This document shows, piece after piece, positions 4,456 to 45,533 of a stretch of DNA of 64,000 nucleotides. Below the pieces are notes generated by a model. The model saw only the letters and a list, made by a program, of their open reading frames with translations, made no database searches and was not told the origin of the DNA. Each line of letters opens with the position of its first letter. Position 1 is the first letter of the stretch. Position numbers and translations under genes: made by a program. Origin of the DNA: an uncultured Thermoplasmatales archaeon (lineage in GTDB: Archaea; Thermoplasmatota; E2; DHVEG-1); NCBI GenBank assembly GCA_964517155.1, contig CAZFAZ010000049.1, positions 3,012-67,011 on the forward strand. The letters run 5' to 3'.

Positions 4456-6057
4456 CTATTTTTTACCTATAAAAATAAACTTCCAGTCCTTTTTTTCTCC
4501 CTCAGAATAAATAATTTCAAAGCCTGAATCCCTAAAAAGTTTTTTCACGCTATCTATTGAATAAGCAGTTTTATAGGCATCAATATGATATTTTGCAATA
4601 TCAAAACCACTTCCTTTAAAAACCATATTTATCCTTATAAGAAATAGTTTAAAACTGGAAAAATCCTTGTTAAGCGCTTCAATTACAAATATGCCATCAG
4701 GTTTTAAAATCCGATATATTTCAGAAAAACCGGTCTTAGGATTAGTCCAATAAGTAAGATTAAAGCGACTAACAACGCAGTCAACAGAACTATCTGTAAG
4801 AGGGATTTTTTCAGCAATACCCCTCTTTGTTTCAATAGATGCGTTCTTCTTTGAAATCTTAAGCATTTCTTCAGACGGATCAATTCCGATAATATGTGCA
4901 TTTGGTACTAATTCATTAATTTCCTTTGATAAAAGACCAGGGCCTACGCCGAGATCAACAATAACTGGTTTTTTGATATCTTCTGAAATATTTTTTTTAA
5001 CAATGCCTGCAAGATAAATATACAATTCCGGAAAACGTTTCATATATTGCTCAAAACGAGAATCTGTATTTTTATCCAGTTTAAAACTAAATAATTTTTT
5101 ACTTTCATAAAAAGTCACAAAACTACCAATTATACTTGGTACAATCCAGATAATTACTATACAAAACAAAGAAAAACTTATAACTTGTTCTGCACTAATA
5201 ACTGCTTCACCAGGTATAATTTTTCCATTTATAAACCTAAAATTAGTAAATAGATAAATTAGAGTAAGATCACGGGTGCCTATACCATAATACGAAATTG
5301 GAATAGCTGCAATTATATCTGCAACAGCCATAATTGCTATAAAAAATACAAACTCTATATTTATATCAAAAAGCTTAGCAATAAAAAACAACATAAAATA
5401 TTTCAAAAACCAACCGGCAATAGATAACCCCAGTGGTGCTAAAACATCTTTAAAACCTGGTAAATCCTCATGAAAAGTATCAATTGAAGATTCAAGTCTG
5501 TCTTTTAAACCAAAAAAAATACGAGATCGCACAATCTTTTTAAAAAGAAAGCGAGATTTATGAGATTTAAAAAAGAATAGATAAACAATAAAAGTAATAA
5601 TAAACACTAATAAGATAATTACAAAAAGATAAGGATAAATACTGCTCAAAATAAGTGCGCCTATGGCACCAGTTATAAGCATTGCAAAAAATTCAACTGT
5701 GTTAAAAATAATAATATTTGAAAAACATTTTGGAAGTGGTGTACTGCTTTCTTCTGCTAGATACAAAGCACGTGTGTAGGCACCAAAACCTCCTGGCGTA
5801 ATAAAACCATAGAAATAACCGATAAAAAAATTTTTAAGGCTATACCAAAAACTAACATTTATTTTTTGTTTTTTAAGAAGAAGCTGCCATTCAACGTTGA
5901 CAAGTAAAAGTAAAGGTACAATGATTAAAAAACTCAAGAAAGCATAAATTGGATTAATATTTACAAAAACTCTAAATATCTTTTCAAAATTTAAATTAAA
6001 TATAATTATAAAAAGTAATATCAGTCCGGCAAGTGGTAACAAGCGTTTTAATTTCAT
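4456..6057 (-). CDS. Fusion protein: N-terminal polytopic membrane domain (UPF0104/flippase-like) plus C-terminal class I SAM-dependent methyltransferase
   Basis: About 8 TM helices in first 330 aa; C-terminal VIVDLGVGPGLL (motif I) ... VDCVVSRF methyltransferase motifs. Confidence 0.6.
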   Translation of the reverse strand: MKLKRLLPLAGLILLFIIIFNLNFEKIFRVFVNINPIYAFLSFLIIVPLLLLVNVEWQLLLKKQKINVSFWYSLKNFFIGYFYGFITPGGFGAYTRALYLAEESSTPLPKCFSNIIIFNTVEFFAMLITGAIGALILSSIYPYLFVIILLVFIITFIVYLFFFKSHKSRFLFKKIVRSRIFFGLKDRLESSIDTFHEDLPGFKDVLAPLGLSIAGWFLKYFMLFFIAKLFDINIEFVFFIAIMAVADIIAAIPISYYGIGTRDLTLIYLFTNFRFINGKIIPGEAVISAEQVISFSLFCIVIIWIVPSIIGSFVTFYESKKLFSFKLDKNTDSRFEQYMKRFPELYIYLAGIVKKNISEDIKKPVIVDLGVGPGLLSKEINELVPNAHIIGIDPSEEMLKISKKNASIETKRGIAEKIPLTDSSVDCVVSRFNLTYWTNPKTGFSEIYRILKPDGIFVIEALNKDFSSFKLFLIRINMVFKGSGFDIAKYHIDAYKTAYSIDSVKKLFRDSGFEIIYSEGEKKDWKFIFIGKK

Positions 6058-6903: not shown

Positions 6904-7896
6904 TTGGAAAAAGAAAAACATGAAACAAGGAAACTTTATGTGATAGACATGTCAGGAGAGGGCATCGGTTTTGGAAAAGTTATATTGTTTAATGAACACT
7001 TTGTAGTATATGGTATACCTGCAATCGTTTCTGCAATTAGTAAGTATACGCGTGCTAAAGTTGAACCTATTGAAAAATCTGGTTGGACTATTGTTGATAA
7101 TCGTAAAGCAACACCTAGTTATAAAGAGGATAAACTTGAGCAGCAGAAAGACTCTATAAATCGTATGATAAAAAAGATGGGTTTAGATTTATCAAAAAAT
7201 GGTGTATCAATAACATTAGAAGGTAATCTTTATGCTGCAAGTGGGATAGGGGCTAGTGCTGCAAGTTGTGTTGCAATCGCAAGAGCTTTATCACAACATT
7301 TTGAGCTTAATTTTTCAAATGATGAGATAAATGAATTTGCTTATGAGGGCGAAAAAGGATATCATGGAACACCTTCAGGTATTGATAACACTGCATCTAC
7401 TTTTGGAGGTCTTATCTGGTTTGAAAAAGCAGAAGAAAAGATAATGGATAAAATTAACCTTCAAAACCCTGTAGAAATCGTTATCGGTAACACTGGTAAA
7501 GTTGCAAATACTACTACTGCTGTTGCAGGCGTAAGAGAGCGTAAGGAGAAATATCCTGAAAGATACAAAGAAATTTTTGATAGAGCTGAAAACATAGCAT
7601 ATCTTGCTCGTGATGCATTTCAGGATGAAGATTATAAAGAGCTTGGTAAACTTATGAATGAGAATCATAAACTTTTACAGCAGATTGAGGTATCTTCTCG
7701 TGAACTTGATTTTCTCGTCAAACTTGCACGGGATCAAGGAGCATATGGTGCAAAACTTACTGGCGGGGGTCTTGGGGGTAACGTAATAGCATTAACGCCT
7801 GGTAAAGATCTTCAGGAAAGAATTGCTAATGCTTTTGAAAAAGAAGGATTCCAATCTCTTAGAACAAGTATTGGAGTTACGCATAGTGGAGAATAA
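6904..7896 (+). CDS. mvk: Mevalonate kinase (GHMP kinase family)
   Basis: GHMP N-terminal region and ATP-binding glycine-rich motif (SGIGASAASCVA), C-terminal LTGGGLGGNVIAL; first gene of mevalonate cluster. Confidence 0.8.
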   Translation: MEKEKHETRKLYVIDMSGEGIGFGKVILFNEHFVVYGIPAIVSAISKYTRAKVEPIEKSGWTIVDNRKATPSYKEDKLEQQKDSINRMIKKMGLDLSKNGVSITLEGNLYAASGIGASAASCVAIARALSQHFELNFSNDEINEFAYEGEKGYHGTPSGIDNTASTFGGLIWFEKAEEKIMDKINLQNPVEIVIGNTGKVANTTTAVAGVRERKEKYPERYKEIFDRAENIAYLARDAFQDEDYKELGKLMNENHKLLQQIEVSSRELDFLVKLARDQGAYGAKLTGGGLGGNVIALTPGKDLQERIANAFEKEGFQSLRTSIGVTHSGE

Positions 7897-22808: not shown

Positions 22809-23246
22809 TTGGGAAAAGTTATTGCATTAAAATTAACAGATAAAGAGGAACGAATTATTAACAAATTAAATGAGGAAGGGATATCCAATAGTGAACTTAT
22901 TAGAGATGCCCTTTGGTATTATTTTAGAACAGTAAATGATGATATGAACCCTCAGGTAAACCCGGTAAACCAAAAGGTAAACCCTGAGGTAAACCATTCT
23001 TCTCAGGAGAAAAATGATAAAATTTTCTATGAATATATCTTTCGTTTGAAAAATGAGATAAACCAGTTACGTGAAGAAAGCAATAAATTTCAAAAGAATT
23101 TTCAGGAGGAAATCCGAAATATTCATAGTCTTTTTGATGAAGGTTTATCTGCAGTTAATCTAACAAAAAAAGAACCAATTATCAGGAAAGAAAACGATTT
23201 TTACGATGTTCATAATGCAATAGATGAATTTTTAAGGAAAAAATAA
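22809..23246 (+). CDS. RHH-type DNA-binding protein, paralog of 21990-22733 (TTG start)
   Basis: MGKVIALKLTDKEERIINKLNEEGISNSELIRDAL parallels N-terminus of upstream paralog; apparent TTG start 8 nt after GGAGGAGGGG; contains 4 GGTAAACC octamers. Confidence 0.5.
   Translation: MGKVIALKLTDKEERIINKLNEEGISNSELIRDALWYYFRTVNDDMNPQVNPVNQKVNPEVNHSSQEKNDKIFYEYIFRLKNEINQLREESNKFQKNFQEEIRNIHSLFDEGLSAVNLTKKEPIIRKENDFYDVHNAIDEFLRKK
22955..22995 (+). repeat. Array of 4 GGTAAACC octamers inside second RHH gene
   Basis: Copies at 22955, 22964, 22976, 22988, same strand and phase as array in first paralog. Confidence 0.85.
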
Positions 23247-23312: not shown

Positions 23313-24011
23313 ATGATTATTGTAAAAAACCTCACTAAGAGATATGGGAAAATAACAGCACTTAACAATGTTAGTTTTAATTTTGATGATTCAAAAGTAA
23401 TTGCTATAATGGGTGAAAATGGAGCAGGAAAAAGCACTCTTTTAAAAATTTTAACAGGAATACTAACATTTGATTCAGGAGAAGTTTTAATCGATGATTT
23501 TTCGATTATAAACGATTCGGTAAAAGCAAGAGAAAAACTTGGATATCTTCCTGAGATGCCAGAAATGTATGAGCGACTAACTGGTAGAGAATTCTTATTT
23601 TACATATCTTCACTTAGAAAAATAAAAAATGCAGAAGAAAAAATAAACCAGATTACAAAAAACATCGACATCTATGATTTTTTAGATTATGAAATAGGAA
23701 CCTATTCAAAGGGAATGAAACAAAAAATCTCAATTACTTCAACTATACTTCACAATCCAGCTAATCTGTTGCTTGACGAGCCGGTTTATGGTCTTGATCC
23801 TCTTACTGCTAAAAAAATCCAAGAGTTTATAAAACAACAAAAAGGCACAACAATTATTGCAACACATTCAACGCAGCTTGTCGAACAAGTTGCAAATCAG
23901 GTATACATTATTGAGCGCGGGAAAGTCATGATGTTTGATGAAGTAAAAAAACTTCTTAAAATATATGGCAGTATAGAAGAAGCATATTTTGCATCAAAGA
24001 AAGGTAAATAA
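23313..24011 (+). CDS. ABC transporter ATP-binding protein
   Basis: Walker A GENGAGKST, signature YSKGMKQKIS, Walker B LLLDEPVYGLD. Confidence 0.8.
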   Translation: MIIVKNLTKRYGKITALNNVSFNFDDSKVIAIMGENGAGKSTLLKILTGILTFDSGEVLIDDFSIINDSVKAREKLGYLPEMPEMYERLTGREFLFYISSLRKIKNAEEKINQITKNIDIYDFLDYEIGTYSKGMKQKISITSTILHNPANLLLDEPVYGLDPLTAKKIQEFIKQQKGTTIIATHSTQLVEQVANQVYIIERGKVMMFDEVKKLLKIYGSIEEAYFASKKGK

Positions 24012-25408
24012 TGTTTGAAACAACAAAAACCATACTTAAAAACAACACAAGAAATCTTTTATCAAAGATTAAAGAAGCACCTATACTTTACATTTTTTTT
24101 ACAATTATGATTATATCTTCAATTTTTTTATTTGCTTTTGTAACACTTTATTTTCAGATAGTTGAAACAGGTTTTAAGTTAAATATACAAGATGTTTTTT
24201 CTTTAGTTTTTTTTGCAATGATGATTAAATCATCAGTTGATTTTTATAACTTTTTTGTTAAATCAAATGAAGTTACTTATGCTCTTTGTACACCGGTTAA
24301 GCATAAAAAAACGATATCGGAGATATTTATTGCAGTTTTTCTGACAAATATTATAATTTGGTTTTCTTTTTCAACGCTTTATGTTTTAGGTCTTGTTTTT
24401 TTTAGAATTAATATAAATTATCCAGATCTGTATATTTTCTTTAATTTAGGTGTAATCGCCGCAATATGTCTTGGCAGCAGTATCTGTATAAATTTTTTCT
24501 CAGGTTTAAGATTAAGATTGCTTCCGATGGCTATCATATTAGTTTTTTATCTATATTTACAAGAGCCGTTGTTTATTGTTTTAACTTTACCGGTAGCAGT
24601 TTTGCATATTATCTGGAGTCTTAGTCATGCAAAAGAATCGCATCAGAATATACGTCGGAAAGAAAGAATAAATAATGTAGCGCAGAATAAAACACGAACT
24701 ATTATATGGGCAATTTTTCATAAAGAAACAACAATTCTCTGGAGAGATAGGCTTCTTTCAAGTTTTATCTCGATGTCTGCTTTTACAGGTTTTGCTACAG
24801 GTTATTTATATCTTTATGGTGATGAAATTTTTATACCTGAATCGCTAAGGGTCATGTATGGTGAGTTTTTACCTTCATTGTTTATATTTTTAGGTGTTTT
24901 TGTAGTAGTAATTTATACTGCTGTTTTTCCATCGCTTGTTCTTTTTTTAAATGAAGAAAAAACTATGTGGATACTCAGGCATATTCCAATTAAAAATCAA
25001 ACATTGATTATAGGTAAACTATCGGCTCTGATTTTATGTTTTATCGCAGGAATACCTTTCATTCCTTTTATACTGATTTTTGTAGGATTTGAAAATTTAT
25101 TGTATATTATTTGGTTTTTAGTTTTTGCGTATTTTGCAAGTGTAATAATCGCACTCCCGATCGGGGTAAAGTATGTTGGTAAAAAATCTGATATAATGCT
25201 ACTTTATAGTGTAACAATGCTTCTTTTGTTTGTTTTGGGAATAGCATCCTTTGCAAGTGTTTTTATGTGGAAAAATTTAGTTTATCCGATTATCCCTTCT
25301 GTATTAATTATTCTTTTTGAATTTGTGTTTTTGTATGTTTCGATTAAAATATCAGATAGAGTTTTAGCTTTTAGAAAGCCGCGTAGTTTAGATCTGAATA
25401 AATTATAG
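24011..25408 (+). CDS. Polytopic membrane permease partner of ABC ATPase (ABC-2-like exporter)
   Basis: 465 aa, 10 or more TM helices; start overlaps ATPase stop (ATAATG). Confidence 0.55.
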   Translation: MFETTKTILKNNTRNLLSKIKEAPILYIFFTIMIISSIFLFAFVTLYFQIVETGFKLNIQDVFSLVFFAMMIKSSVDFYNFFVKSNEVTYALCTPVKHKKTISEIFIAVFLTNIIIWFSFSTLYVLGLVFFRININYPDLYIFFNLGVIAAICLGSSICINFFSGLRLRLLPMAIILVFYLYLQEPLFIVLTLPVAVLHIIWSLSHAKESHQNIRRKERINNVAQNKTRTIIWAIFHKETTILWRDRLLSSFISMSAFTGFATGYLYLYGDEIFIPESLRVMYGEFLPSLFIFLGVFVVVIYTAVFPSLVLFLNEEKTMWILRHIPIKNQTLIIGKLSALILCFIAGIPFIPFILIFVGFENLLYIIWFLVFAYFASVIIALPIGVKYVGKKSDIMLLYSVTMLLLFVLGIASFASVFMWKNLVYPIIPSVLIILFEFVFLYVSIKISDRVLAFRKPRSLDLNKL

Positions 25409-25457
25409 TTATTTCTTGTGCATTGCCTGAAAATTAATATGTAATATTTTATTTTTA

Positions 25458-25479
25458 TATTTTTATTAATACTTTTAAT
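25458..25479 (+). repeat. 22-nt direct repeat copy 1 (TATTTTTATTAATACTTTTAAT)
   Basis: Perfect match to 26402-26423; the two copies bracket a 3-gene RHH/RHH/RelE-like cassette. Confidence 0.8.
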
Positions 25480-25662
25480 GACCTTTTGTTATTCTTTATT
25501 AACTTAAAGCAAAATATGTTTGTTTAGAAATAGGGAAGTAAAATAATAATCAGCTGTGAAAAGAAATAATGCTAAAATATTGTAAAATCAGGATTTCAGT
25601 CAAAAATTATAAATAATATCATGTAAATACATATAATCATGAAATTACATGAGGTTATGTAA

Positions 25663-25809
25663 ATGGTTAGAATGACATTTTCTATCTCTGATGATTTAAA
25701 AAAGAAACTAGATGCGCGGCCAGATATAAATTGGTCAGAGATCTTTAAACAAGGTATAAAAATTAAACTCAATAAATTAGAAAATTTACATGCAAAAGGA
25801 GAAATTTAA
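25663..25809 (+). CDS. Small RHH-like protein (48 aa) MVRMTFSISDDLKKKLDARPDINWSEIFKQGIKIKLNKLENLHAKGEI
   Basis: Below ORF cutoff; beta-strand/helix/helix pattern with NWSEI loop shared with ORFs 25810 and 20263; stop abuts next ATG. Confidence 0.4.
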   Translation: MVRMTFSISDDLKKKLDARPDINWSEIFKQGIKIKLNKLENLHAKGEI

Positions 25810-26112
25810 ATGGCTTGTATAACTATAACTGTTGAAGAATCATTTAAAGAAAGGCTATCAAAATTTCCTTGGGTCAATTGGTCAGAGATAGGTAGAGAAG
25901 AAGTTTTAAAAAGATATATTTTTGAAAAATATATCAAAACTAAAAAACTTACAAAAGAAGAAACTGATTTTTGTGAAAAAAGTGACTGGCATCCTGTTGA
26001 TGAGCTGCCATTACGCGAAGAGTTCATTGAAGAAATCAAAAAAGTTGCAAAGGGCAAATATCATAGATACAAATCTATTGAAGATTTAAAAAGAGATACC
26101 AGTGATGGATAG
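25810..26112 (+). CDS. RHH-like putative antitoxin/regulator (100 aa)
   Basis: ITITVEESFKERLSKFPWVNWSEIGREEVLKRYI paralogous to neighbouring RHH ORFs. Confidence 0.5.
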   Translation: MACITITVEESFKERLSKFPWVNWSEIGREEVLKRYIFEKYIKTKKLTKEETDFCEKSDWHPVDELPLREEFIEEIKKVAKGKYHRYKSIEDLKRDTSDG

Positions 26113-26127
26113 TTAATGTATAATTAG

Positions 26128-26388
26128 GTGGTAAGTACAGATTTGCGAAAATTTTTAAGTAAAATATCTAAAAAAAATAAGATTTTTTATGATAAAATAT
26201 TGAAAAAAATTAGCGAAATAATAAGTTCTGAAAATATTGAACATTATAAGAATTTGAAATATGGTTTAAAAAATTTTAAAAGAGCACATATTGGACATTT
26301 TGTTTTAATCTTTAGATATGATAAAAGATCAAACACAATTTTTTTCGATAATATCAAACATCATGATTTTGCATACAGAAAAAAGTAA
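26128..26388 (+). CDS. RelE/ParE-superfamily toxin-like protein
   Basis: 86 aa, C-terminal KRAHIGHFVLIFRYDKRSNTIFFDNIKHHDFAYRK matches RelE/YoeB-type beta-sheet motif. Confidence 0.5.
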   Translation: MVSTDLRKFLSKISKKNKIFYDKILKKISEIISSENIEHYKNLKYGLKNFKRAHIGHFVLIFRYDKRSNTIFFDNIKHHDFAYRKK

Positions 26389-26401
26389 AATTAATTTTTA
26401 G

Positions 26402-26423
26402 TATTTTTATTAATACTTTTAAT
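26402..26423 (+). repeat. 22-nt direct repeat copy 2 (TATTTTTATTAATACTTTTAAT)
   Basis: Perfect match to 25458-25479; also preceded by related AAAATTAAT segment in both copies. Confidence 0.8.
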
Positions 26424-26545
26424 AAACCTATTAATAAATATATAAGCTAATATTTTTATAACTAATCCATAGTCTCTTTGATAGAATAAAAAAGCAAAAT
26501 GATAAACTTAATATACTATGATATACTTAAGTATAAGATGGTATA

Positions 26546-26788
26546 ATGAATGCGACAACAATAAAAATCCATAAAGATACAAAAGCACAAATCGACCAAT
26601 TTAGAGAATACAAAAACGAGAGTTACGATGAAGTATTAAGAAAAATAATATATATAGTAAAATCAATCAAAAAGAAGCCAGATTTATCTAAAGAAGCAAT
26701 AAAATCAATTGAAGCGGCTAGGAAAAGAATGGATAAAGGGCATTTTTATAATGAAGAAGAGGCTAAAAAAATATTAGGCCTTGAATAG
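26546..26788 (+). CDS. RHH-type antitoxin
   Basis: 80 aa; TTIKIHKDTKAQIDQF N-terminal strand/helix; immediately upstream of RelE gene (TAGATG junction). Confidence 0.55.
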   Translation: MNATTIKIHKDTKAQIDQFREYKNESYDEVLRKIIYIVKSIKKKPDLSKEAIKSIEAARKRMDKGHFYNEEEAKKILGLE

Positions 26789-27058
26789 ATGTATGAAATA
26801 ATATTTGACAAAAATGCAATAGAATTTCTTAACAAACTTGATTATAAACTTAAAGAAAGAATTTTTATAAAAATTATTTCAACTAAAGAAAAACCATTTA
26901 GATATTTTCAAAAACTTGTTTACAGGGATGGATATAAACTAAGAGTAGGTAATTATCGGGTAATAGCAGATATTGACAAAAACTCATTAAAGATTAAAAT
27001 CCGTCTAATAATGCATAGAAAAAATATTTACGAAAAATTACAAAGAAAAGTTTACTAG
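26789..27058 (+). CDS. relE: RelE/StbE-family toxin (mRNA interferase)
   Basis: 89 aa; GNYRVIADIDKNSLKIKIRLIMHRKNIY is the classic RelE C-terminal motif. Confidence 0.7.
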   Translation: MYEIIFDKNAIEFLNKLDYKLKERIFIKIISTKEKPFRYFQKLVYRDGYKLRVGNYRVIADIDKNSLKIKIRLIMHRKNIYEKLQRKVY

Positions 27059-27081
27059 TTATGATTAAAACATGTTTCTTT

Positions 27082-28134
27082 TTAACCTTTTATTATCCCC
27101 AAATCTTCCATTTTCCTAAAATTATCAGGGTTCTTCTCAAAGTATCTATGAATTGGCTCAAGGCTTTTATTGATATATTTTGCAGTAGAGTTTTTCAAAT
27201 CAAGTGGATGTAAATCTTTGACAAATTCTTGTTCTAGTTCCTCGTATGTTTTAAATTCTAGATTTCCTCCAAATTTCTCAGGTCTTTCTATTAAGAATTT
27301 TTCATCTTTAAGCTCTGGAAAAACTACGTATTTACACATCTCAAGAACTGGATTGCCTTGAACTATTTTTTCAGGACAATATGCTTTTTTCATTTTGCGA
27401 TTTACTTCCTCTGGACTGTCGTGTATACTAATCATTGAATCAGGTTTGCTTTTACTCATTTTAACTTCAGTAGGATCCATGCGTCCACCGGCTTGCAGAC
27501 CTGTAAGCAGTGGTGTATGAATTGCAACTGGTGCTTTGCGGCCTATCTTTTTTGATATATCCCTTGCAAGCATATGTGCATGACGCTGATCCATTCCACC
27601 GTATGCAACATCTAGATTTAGATAAAATATATCTGAGACTTGCATAGCAGGATAAAATAATTTTGATAAATCGCGTTCTGCCTCGTCTTCAGATCTTCCC
27701 ATTATATCCATTGCACGTTTTACACGTGCGACACTTGTTGCTTTTGAGACTCTTAAGACCAATTCCCAATATTTTGGGTCACCTATATAATCACTTGCAT
27801 AAACAAATGTTAACTTGTCACGGGGAACACCCATTGCTTCAAAACAATCCTGCATATATCTACCACAGAGTTTGATTTTTTCAATGTCTCCTCCGAGTTT
27901 ATCATTAATATATGCATGCCAGTCTGCCATAAGCACAGTGAAATCAAAACCAGCATTTAGAAAATCTTTAATTTTATTTGTGCAAATCTTCCAGCCAAGA
28001 TGAACTGTACCTGAGGGTTCAAACCCGATATATGCACGTGGTTTGGATTTTTCAAGAACTTTTTTCAGCTCAGGTATTGTAACAGTTTCTTCAGCATTTT
28101 GTAAGATTAATTCTAATTTGTCCATTGTCTTCAT
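27082..28134 (-). CDS. tyrS: Tyrosyl-tRNA synthetase (archaeal type)
   Basis: AYIGFEPSGTVHLGW (HIGH-region equivalent), VKMSKSKPDS (KMSKS), strong collinearity with M. jannaschii TyrRS. Confidence 0.9.
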   Translation of the reverse strand: MKTMDKLELILQNAEETVTIPELKKVLEKSKPRAYIGFEPSGTVHLGWKICTNKIKDFLNAGFDFTVLMADWHAYINDKLGGDIEKIKLCGRYMQDCFEAMGVPRDKLTFVYASDYIGDPKYWELVLRVSKATSVARVKRAMDIMGRSEDEAERDLSKLFYPAMQVSDIFYLNLDVAYGGMDQRHAHMLARDISKKIGRKAPVAIHTPLLTGLQAGGRMDPTEVKMSKSKPDSMISIHDSPEEVNRKMKKAYCPEKIVQGNPVLEMCKYVVFPELKDEKFLIERPEKFGGNLEFKTYEELEQEFVKDLHPLDLKNSTAKYINKSLEPIHRYFEKNPDNFRKMEDLGIIKG

Positions 28135-44433: not shown

Positions 44434-45084
44434 ATGAACAGACCCCATGTTATTATAAATTGTGCGATGAGTGCAGATGGAAAAATTGCTACACCTGCAG
44501 GTAAACAACTTCGCATATCAAACGAAGAAGATATAAAAAGGATGTATAGTCTGCGAAACAGTTCAGATGCAGTACTAGTGGGAGTAAATACTGTTCTTTC
44601 TGATAATCCAAAACTAACAGTTAAAGAAACATATATATCAAATCCAAAAAACCCTATTCGTGTTATTCTTGACACTCATTGTAGAACAAAACCAGATTCA
44701 TTAGCCGTTGATACCCAAGCAAAAACAATAATTATTACAAATGGAAAATGTGATAGGATTTATTCAGAAAATGTTGAAGTAATACAATGTGATGTAGATT
44801 ATGAAGGTTTAATTGATATTGAAAAAATGCTGGATGTCCTGTATAATAAAGGTATAAAAAAACTCCTAGTTGAAGGAGGTAGTACAGTTATTTGGAATTT
44901 TCTAAAGCATGGTCTTGTTGATGATTTTTTTATATATATCGGCCCAATAATCATAGGTGGAAAATATACGCCATCTGTTGCTGATGGTGAAGGAATAGAT
45001 GAAAATAACCCAATTAGCATGAAAATTGTTGATATGAAAAGATTTGGGGAAGGAATATTAGTCCATTATCAACTGATAAAATGA
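44434..45084 (+). CDS. RibD-C-terminal-domain-like reductase (DHFR fold; diaminohydroxyphosphoribosylaminopyrimidine reductase or DHFR surrogate)
   Basis: Start refined to internal Met MNRPHVIINCAMSADGKIA (typical RibG/DHFR-like N-terminus; the ORF-track start at 44347 overlaps thyX by 80 nt); GGSTV...FIYIGP C-terminal region. Confidence 0.7.
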   Translation: MNRPHVIINCAMSADGKIATPAGKQLRISNEEDIKRMYSLRNSSDAVLVGVNTVLSDNPKLTVKETYISNPKNPIRVILDTHCRTKPDSLAVDTQAKTIIITNGKCDRIYSENVEVIQCDVDYEGLIDIEKMLDVLYNKGIKKLLVEGGSTVIWNFLKHGLVDDFFIYIGPIIIGGKYTPSVADGEGIDENNPISMKIVDMKRFGEGILVHYQLIK

Positions 45085-45533
45085 AATTTTTATGCGATCA
45101 AATGCTAGGTACACTTGCTAAATGGCTGCGCATATATGGTTTTGATACACTTTATGCCAATTCTACAATGTCAGATGATAAACTAATTATTATTTCTAAA
45201 AAAGAAAATAGATGTTTGATTACAAGGGATGAAGAACTTGCTTTTAGATCTAAAAAAGAAAACATAAATGTGATACATTTTAAGATTAAGGAATTAGATG
45301 AACAACTAACTCTTGTATTGCGCGGTTTAGAAATAGATAAAGATAAAATTCTTTCACGATGTATAGTTTGCAACTCTGATTTATCTGAAATTAAAAAAGA
45401 CAAGGTTGTAGATAAAGTTCCAGAAAAAGTTTTTCAAAATCATGAAAAATTTTGGTTTTGTAAAAAATGCGACAAAATCTATTGGCAGGGTAGCCATTAC
45501 GATAAAATGATTCAAAAGGCTTTAAAATTATAG
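45081..45533 (+). CDS. Mut7-C domain (PIN-like plus zinc-ribbon) protein
   Basis: MKFLCDQMLGTLAKWLRIYGFDT N-terminus and C-terminal CIVCN...CKKCDKIYWQGSH zinc ribbon typical of DUF82/Mut7-C. Confidence 0.55.
   Translation: MKFLCDQMLGTLAKWLRIYGFDTLYANSTMSDDKLIIISKKENRCLITRDEELAFRSKKENINVIHFKIKELDEQLTLVLRGLEIDKDKILSRCIVCNSDLSEIKKDKVVDKVPEKVFQNHEKFWFCKKCDKIYWQGSHYDKMIQKALKL

Follow-up and report, generated by a model that had tools for sequence, protein, structure and literature searches.

A 22-nt repeat heads two tandem toxin-antitoxin cassettes in an uncultured Thermoplasmatales archaeon: a candidate promoter-upstream element

Two perfect copies of a 22-nucleotide (nt) sequence lie 944 nt apart in a 64,000-nt stretch of DNA from an uncultured Thermoplasmatales archaeon (GenBank assembly GCA_964517155.1, contig CAZFAZ010000049.1, positions 3,012 to 67,011), which will be referred to as the window. 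They bracket three small genes of a toxin-antitoxin (TA) operon, here called cassette 1, and a second antitoxin/toxin pair, cassette 2, follows downstream. We found that the repeats are the heads of two neighbouring cassettes and that both cassettes are inserted between two genes which overlap in relatives. The repeat belongs to a motif family that is exclusively associated and co-oriented with TA-type operons and keeps a fixed distance to a TATA-like box. We favour, with a probability of roughly 0.55, the interpretation that the motif is an element specific to this lineage, located upstream of promoters and carried along by mobile TA cassettes, of which two were inserted here in tandem.

The sequence TATTTTTATTAATACTTTTAAT is present on the + strand at 25458-25479 and 26402-26423. 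No other matches occur in the window, even when up to three mismatches are allowed, and shuffles preserving the dinucleotide composition yielded a mean of 0.01 matches, two or more being reached in 0 of 100. The exact 22-mer was detected 14 times in 596 Gb of reference genomes, in unrelated AT-rich organisms, and 42 times in the metagenome collection, in every case as a lone copy; the source genome of the window is contained in neither the scanned reference collection (GTDB representatives) nor the metagenome collection. Viral contigs, plasmids and phages gave zero matches. Two copies 944 nt apart, compared with always-single copies elsewhere, are far beyond chance, and chance or low complexity as the origin of the repeats is ruled out by the shuffles and the collection-wide counts. 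On the basis of the same scans, a widespread repeat or a miniature inverted-repeat transposable element was rejected. The initial annotation, made from the letters of the window, had judged chance to be a very improbable origin of a perfect 22-mer and had placed each copy shortly after a stop codon and behind a related segment. All of this was confirmed: copy 1 begins 49 nt past the stop of a 465-aa gene (25408), copy 2 begins 13 nt past the stop of the cassette-1 toxin gene (26388), and AAAATTAAT is found upstream of both (25430-25438 and 26387-26395). A small open reading frame (ORF) starting from the ATG inside ...AATGACC was considered and rejected, as this ATG is not conserved (second window copy, L067, L069; contigs related to the window are numbered with L throughout) and the frames are short and unrelated.

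Comparison with relatives demonstrated that both cassettes are part of one inserted segment (25416-27081, + strand). On its left side lies the gene for a 465-aa membrane protein (24011-25408, + strand), the partner of an ABC ATPase (23313-24011) and 78% identical to its orthologue in L059, and on its right side the convergent gene for tyrosyl-tRNA synthetase (TyrRS; 27082-28134, - strand; Pfam tRNA-synt_1b), for which orthologues were found as well. TyrRS homologues belong to Thermoplasmatota, Thermoplasmatales archaeon SG8-52-1 being among the named ones, and the window matches a 97-kb metagenome contig of the Joint Genome Institute (JGI). The 465-aa protein is encoded on seven contigs that were read, six of 50-200 kb with mostly the same neighbours and one short Logan contig. 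In six related contigs the insert is absent: TyrRS is 88% identical to that of the window in L059-L061 and 83% in L064-L066, and the membrane gene (465/460 aa) and the TyrRS gene are convergent and overlap by 21 nt (L059-L061) or 11 nt (L064-L066), with no TA genes between the flanks and no motif anywhere near. A third arrangement, in L062 and L063, is likewise free of cassettes. The alignment between window and empty site continues through TAGTTATTTC at 25406-25415, so that 25416-27081 represents an insertion of ~1.67 kb; both flanking gene ends are intact in the window. Since the empty site does not contain the motif, the 22-mer is neither a target-site duplication nor a pre-existing attachment site. 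The initial annotation had proposed to look in related strains for the locus with and without the cassette, between single repeat copies; an insert-free locus was indeed found, but without a single repeat copy.

At the same junctions, one 21-nt segment of relatives (L059 9027-9047) holds the seven C-terminal codons of TyrRS on one strand and those of the membrane protein on the other, and in the window both C-termini are separate, on either side of the insert (25388-25415 and 27082-27109). The overlapped segment (21-28 nt) may have been duplicated on insertion, both C-termini being retained. Local alignments searching for a duplicated gene end at the right junction, or for a 7-nt TAGTTAT direct repeat at the insert ends, scored no better than shuffles. 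The locus offers a clean, datable case of TA cassettes placed between overlapping convergent essential genes with both frames kept complete.

Each of the two repeats heads its own cassette. An exact-word search retrieved four metagenome contigs related in context. L028 carries the same three-gene cassette with 83% nucleotide identity behind a different gene, with the motif upstream, none downstream, and an intact DUF7695 gene between the motif and the ribbon-helix-helix (RHH) gene. Homologues of the 100-aa protein encoded in cassette 1 led to further contexts. In L067, L071 and L085 the 5' end of cassette 1 has a diverged form of the motif, and in none of the four contexts beyond the window, L028 included, was a 3' copy present. 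Both cassette types occur in reverse order in L069, where a single motif precedes the array as a whole, and L070 holds a larger TA array. BLAST homology of cassette 1 to L028, L067 and L069 starts at 25433-25436, where a T-rich box (AATATGTAATATTTTAT; 25436-25452, + strand; identical in L071, near-identical in L028) marks its 5' edge, and by inspection it ends at the toxin stop. Between cassette 2 and L069 the homology (81% over 655 nt) sets in at 26388 and takes in the second 22-mer, the whole leader from this position being homologous to the cassette-2 leader of L069. These boundaries, together with the lone 5' copies elsewhere, identify the 22-mers as heads of two neighbouring cassettes and not as the two ends of one; the window repeats flank cassette 1 alone and not the whole insert. 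The cassettes are thus mobile, as the initial annotation had suspected: relatives have the site without an insert, and one and the same cassette recurs in many surroundings. Its alternative of a duplication did not hold. No relationship was detectable between the two toxins when they were compared, and no similarity beyond a 44-nt stretch was seen that would fit a tandem duplication of one TA module.

The conserved part of the repeat was defined by an anchored alignment of 14 instances and its information-content profile. The core, ATTAATA(C/G)TTTnAATnACCyCT, lies ~7 nt rightward of the 22-mer as first noted, which covers its left two-thirds, at 25465-25484 in cassette 1 (ATTAATACTTTTAATGACCT; nhmmer E = 9e-8) and, by the same alignment and nhmmer model, at 26409-26428 in cassette 2 (ATTAATACTTTTAATAAACC), both on the + strand. 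The nhmmer model, built on the core-anchored alignment, was run over ~310 kb of related Thermoplasmatota contigs and yielded these 14 motif instances; L086 adds two redundant copies, as it repeats the L085 locus. The core is followed by ~7 variable bases and then by a TATA-like octamer, and over the 14 instances the mean TATA score peaks at +10 from the core with 7.07 of 8, compared to ~4 at all other offsets. In the window, the TATA-like boxes 10 nt past core 1 (TTTATTAA; 25495-25502, + strand; predicted distal promoter) and 10 nt past core 2 (TATATAAG; 26439-26446, + strand) follow this rule.

All 14 instances are located upstream of, and co-oriented with, small operons of eight kinds, seven of them TA-type: RHH_12/DUF2683/YafQ, DUF7557/ParE, DUF7695-VapBC, AbrB/RelE, a 94-aa/117-aa pair without Pfam assignment, RHH_12/PIN, DUF7557/PemK and a 48-aa ORF. 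None of the 14 precedes a housekeeping gene. The initial annotation had named, as the finding that would refute its proposal, a generic promoter element at a locus without an empty site; the motif is confined to TA-type cassettes, and the empty site exists. In three cassettes (L085b, L050m and L028) the start codon follows 23-33 nt past the TATA box, a spacing consistent with archaeal transcripts that have short leaders or none. A TATA box at a fixed offset from the core and near the downstream start is the arrangement of an archaeal promoter with an upstream site. When four orthologous cassette-1 leaders were aligned, the motif/TATA block and the proximal operator showed 50-75% invariant columns and the region between them 0-35%; in these leaders purifying selection on the motif is evident. 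The idea of a shared promoter or terminator module on shuffled cassettes, put forward in the initial annotation, was therefore upheld in its promoter part by the fixed 10-nt distance and the eight kinds of operon. The terminator part was not, the invariant positions lying outside the T-runs and some copies lying between divergent genes. At L050p, L050m2 and L067 the intergenic region is divergent and no gene upstream runs in the direction of the motif, so that the motif is not merely a terminator. Rfam gave no match at E ≤ 1 in 24500-27500, and DNA folding of both strands of 25420-25520 and 26380-26480 resulted in z-scores of -0.43 to -1.0 against shuffles, with dyads of only 5-8 bp; a structured RNA was rejected on these grounds.

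The L050 locus deserves separate mention. Two motif copies lie there back to back (5702-5834), ~34 nt apart and on opposite strands, each with its own TATA-like box; one faces the 48-aa ORF beside aIF5B and the other the VapBC operon. The convergent AbrB/RelE operon at 7232 has the third copy at its head.

From this anatomy we infer promoter activity, a binding factor and a mode of cassette exchange, which might work together as follows. Each cassette brings its own 5' module consisting of the T-rich stretch, the core and a TATA box exactly 10 nt downstream. Relative to a distal archaeal promoter, the core would span about -65 to -40. A small DUF7695 zinc-ribbon gene, located before the TA genes in the ancestral cassette 1, was presumably transcribed from this promoter. 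As a conserved site directly before the transcription factor B recognition element (BRE) and TATA box gives the region the anatomy of an archaeal promoter, the core is read as a putative binding site for a lineage-specific factor, either activator or repressor and not cassette-encoded, which would place many different TA operons under common control. The shared ~30-50 nt, being the same on many cassettes, could in addition act as portable homology for cassette exchange. If the motif is indeed a shared control element, many TA operons of one widespread uncultured sediment archaeal lineage would form a single regulon, and scanning for the motif plus TATA box would provide a handle for unannotated TA or defence genes.

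Several points weigh against a promoter role. Promoter activity is read here from sequence only, and every TA operon already possesses a conserved proximal promoter and operator, so that a distal promoter in the window would give leaders of 80-140 nt. Perfect identity over 22 nt exceeds the need of a typical factor-binding site, and since four of the 14 instances came from the exact-match search, this perfection is partly an ascertainment effect. Breaks in homology fall on the edges of the motif: between L021 and L058, identity is 95% over 258 nt upstream and 100% within the motif, and directly behind it drops to random level. In L082-L084, cassette 1 has lost the motif and retains the TATA box. 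Finally, sister lineages carry different junction repeats, which in one lineage are co-oriented whatever the gene direction, a behaviour more in line with a structural or recombinational role than with that of a promoter.

The repeats of the sister lineages are of two types. In L074-L081 (GC content 37-40%), a 19-nt repeat, TTTCCCAAAGTCGTCACCT, forms clusters of one to six copies with a period of ~24 nt at every cassette junction (for example L081 141-372, 1362-1545 and 2554-2758; L076 3468-3617, 4367 and 5501-5684). The strand is the same for all copies, including those that adjoin reversed ParE and Fic cassettes. An identical 100-aa protein is encoded in this lineage by a cassette that is at least 98% identical at the DNA level and occurs in at least five upstream and at least four downstream contexts, the block of identity beginning exactly at the last TTTCCCAAAGTCGTCACCT copy. 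In L072 (8521-8594, 9510-9583 and 10651-10724), and alike in L073, a direct repeat of ~75 nt precedes each of three co-oriented cassettes. It contains the hairpin GATTTT-N8-AAAATC with one compensatory variant (GGGATTT/AAATTCC), and its 3' end, CACTTTTCACC(C/T)ATCT, resembles the 3' end of the window motif.

These junction repeats give weight to the rival explanation that an undescribed cassette-capture system, integron-like with another site and geometry, recombines at the motif; its lineage-specific recombinase would be encoded elsewhere, and the promoter-like spacing would be secondary. All three types of junction element end in ...ACC(Y) at the cassette-proximal edge, and the sister lineages have a lineage-specific repeat at each junction. 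The breakpoints at the motif edges are found both ~22 nt upstream (window versus L028, L067 and L069) and at the 3' edge (L021 versus L058, window versus L083), cassettes end exactly at the toxin stop codon, the same cassette recurs in many contexts, and copies at the same locus (the two window copies, W1-W2, and L085a-b) are 83% identical compared to a median of ~71% between orthologous cassettes. On the other hand, the empty site lacks the motif and thus any attB-like target, and no recombinase was seen among the part of the window ORFs that was scanned or in the precomputed Pfam annotation of related loci. The dyad symmetry of the motif is at most 5-8 bp, its strand folds no better than shuffles, and the symmetry of known core sites is missing. 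L069 has two cassettes and only one motif, and the three L050 copies are not co-oriented, each taking the direction of its own gene. The breakpoints on both sides of the motif, with no single crossover point, are also what ordinary homologous recombination would give; they fit homologous exchange at a portable identity and fit a dedicated site too. We regard a recombination site as possible but rather unlikely, and as somewhat less probable still the broader proposal that Thermoplasmatota possess an undescribed capture or shuffling system with lineage-specific junction elements (window core, TTTCCCAAAGTCGTCACCT and 75-nt repeat) and a recombinase elsewhere, of which the window 22-mers would be two sites. 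A recombination site would point to an archaeal cassette-shuffling mechanism distinct from integrons.

Other explanations carry far less weight. Oligo-T tracts are the archaeal intrinsic termination signal, and the T-runs at the motif (T5, T4 and the T-rich 20 nt upstream) could act as a terminator or insulator that stops read-through before the cassette promoter, in agreement with the position of most copies 13-50 nt past the stop of a co-directional upstream gene. Yet the invariant positions are ATTAATAC...ACC and not the T-runs, three copies in divergent intergenic regions have nothing to terminate, and other gene ends in the window are without the motif, which makes this an improbable function. 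Slightly less probable again is that the motif has no function and represents a shared ancestral leader fragment kept identical by gene conversion between adjacent copies. The second window copy does equal the first over 22 nt, yet differs at three of those positions from its L069 orthologue, and the motif diverges roughly like the cassettes (window versus L067: 80% in the core, 77% in the whole cassette); concerted evolution within a genome is suggestive in the window and L085, not in L050. Against this, the motif is common to unrelated cassettes across genomes and metagenomes with an unchanged 10-nt spacing to the TATA box, and the motif is clearly more conserved than the neighbouring leader. 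The initial annotation had also considered a target-site duplication or an att-like pair, and perfect direct repeats bracketing a three-gene cassette would suit the attL/attR sites or target duplication of a single inserted 944-bp cassette. The comparisons refute this: the empty site is without the sequence, copy 2 lies within the leader of cassette 2 itself, the repeats flank cassette 1 only, cassette 1 has one 5' copy and no 3' copy in L028, L067, L071 and L085, and the motif stands singly before other TA operons.

The three small genes that the initial annotation had placed between the repeats, and the pair after them, are present as described. Cassette 1 begins with a 48-aa RHH_12 protein (25663-25809, + strand), a putative antitoxin or repressor, which was assigned by PF26688 RHH_12 on an identical product and also gave a weak VapB-family match. 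It is followed by a 100-aa protein (25810-26112, + strand) for which profile and homologue searches indicated an RHH_12-like N-terminus and, by a weak match, a DUF2683-like C-terminus; the N-terminus is paralogous to the 48-aa protein (E = 1e-6), and 220 homologues were found, the few with a source name deriving from Thermoplasmatota or Euryarchaeota metagenome-assembled genomes. The third gene (26116-26388, + strand) encodes a YafQ/RelE-type toxin with an open frame of 86 aa at 26128-26388 and a GTG start. Its product matches ParE_toxin (PF05016) with 26.0 bits (cutoff 23) and TIGR00053 YafQ with E = 3e-13 and 50.2 bits, which is under the curated cut-off of 87.25, and shows a weak PDB match to HP0892 (E = 0.004). 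Read from the ancestral ATG at 26116, the frame is closed by a TAG at codon 4, a position occupied by TAT in homologues, and reopens at the GTG at 26128. Because of this TAG, the 86-aa ORF starts 15 nt past the stop of the 100-aa gene, and the toxin may, judging from this codon, be attenuated or silenced. Of the three genes that the initial annotation had called translationally coupled, the 48-aa and 100-aa genes abut stop to start, as do the 80-aa and 89-aa genes of cassette 2, and the 86-aa gene does not.

Cassette 2 consists of an 80-aa DUF7557 (RHH-like) antitoxin (26546-26788, + strand; Pfam DUF7557 25.2 bits, cutoff 25; 84% identical to the L069 homologue) and an 89-aa ParE/RelE-type toxin (26789-27058, + strand; ParE_toxin PF05016 26.1 bits, cutoff 23), the latter with weak PDB matches to 2KHE and to M. 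jannaschii RelE3 (3BPQ) at E of about 0.005-0.008. With a toxin profile match and an adjacent upstream gene for a small predicted DNA-binding antitoxin, both cassettes classify as predicted type II TA systems of the RelE/ParE superfamily. Palindromes lie directly upstream of each TA operon, at 25621-25652 in cassette 1 and at 26522-26535 in cassette 2, and would be cassette-specific antitoxin operators. The former belong to a proximal promoter and operator (25603-25652, + strand) with a TTATAAAT box and the palindromes ATGTAAATACAT and TCATGAAATTACATGA, conserved in all cassette-1 homologues, and the latter to operator-like repeats (26511-26535, + strand) with two ATATACT and the palindrome TATACTTAAGTATA, conserved in L069 and L070. 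The leader of cassette 1 further contains a 3'-end remnant of the DUF7695 zinc-ribbon gene (25533-25551, + strand), the conserved GGGAGGTAAAATA matching the end of the intact gene in L028 (1633-1481, minus strand; 50 aa); remnants are also present in L050 and L070. The remnant in the window leader points to an ancestral cassette 1 with the order motif, TATA, DUF7695, RHH, RHH/DUF2683 and toxin.

Cassette-1 toxin genes of relatives are often decayed by frameshifts or deletions, both RHH-type genes being intact (L069 3073-3370, L085 10300-10560, L070 4298-4370, L071 10307-10588), which suggests that the antitoxin/regulator genes outlive the toxin in this cassette. Elsewhere in the window, a 145-aa ORF (22809-23246) located before the ABC ATPase/permease pair next to the insert has an N-terminus reading like a ribbon-helix-helix (...LIRDALWYY...) and no Pfam match, and a stand-alone Mut7-C (PIN-like) RNase gene (45081-45533; E = 8e-46) is without an adjacent antitoxin-like gene and without the motif.

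Among known systems, an integron-like site had been proposed in the initial annotation. The cassettes resemble the TA cassettes of chromosomal integrons and those of archaeal integrons and clusters of attC sites lacking integron-integrases (CALINs; PMC9668308) in their size of ~1 kb, the many TA genes, the tandem arrangement, the varied order and context, and the lineage-specific repeat. The repeat is no attC site. It lies 5' of the genes and follows their orientation; homology ends at the toxin stop, so that it is not a site travelling at the 3' end. R''/L''-L'/R' repeats, that is, imperfect inverted repeats folding into a hairpin, are absent (z-scores as given above), and no GTTRRRY occurs in or beside either copy, the nearest GTT belonging to GTTATTC at 25489, a sequence outside this consensus. 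The two window copies are oriented alike and the three L050 copies are not. A tyrosine recombinase or IntI was found neither among the part of the window ORFs that was scanned nor in the precomputed Pfam annotation of the loci. Thermoplasmatota are absent from the main text of the archaeal integron survey (PMC9668308).

In their gene content the cassettes correspond to autoregulated type II TA operons such as RelBE, ParDE and YafQ-DinJ, as RHH-type antitoxin genes abut genes for toxins of the RelE/ParE fold and palindromic operators lie by the start codon. They differ in that cassette 1 has three genes, two of RHH_12 type before the toxin, and ancestrally a fourth (DUF7695), and in that both cassettes carry a second, distal promoter-like module common to other TA families. 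Archaeal upstream activating sites, for example those of Ptr2 or of the Lrp family, sit upstream of BRE/TATA. The motif is similar to these in being a 15-22-bp AT-rich sequence of weak dyad symmetry (ATTAA-N5-TTAAT) directly upstream of BRE/TATA, and differs in that the site is unusually invariant in the window lineage and the factor is putative.

In archaeal viruses, unrelated small anti-defence genes share genome-specific regulatory sequences around BRE/TATA, which are probably bound by Aca8, and such consensus sequences served to find anti-defence genes (PMC11065993). As in the SIRV2 early genes of that study, unrelated small genes here have a similar upstream sequence tied to the TATA box, similarity of the sequence is higher inside one genome or lineage than across them, and motif-free homologous genes exist. 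In contrast to the viral system, the genes concerned are chromosomal TA operons of Thermoplasmatota, the conserved block lies upstream of BRE/TATA and not around it and coincides with cassette boundaries, and its regulator is putative. Our literature search found no description of such a motif, which combines two known kinds, mobile TA cassettes and consensus regulatory sequences common to unrelated small genes.

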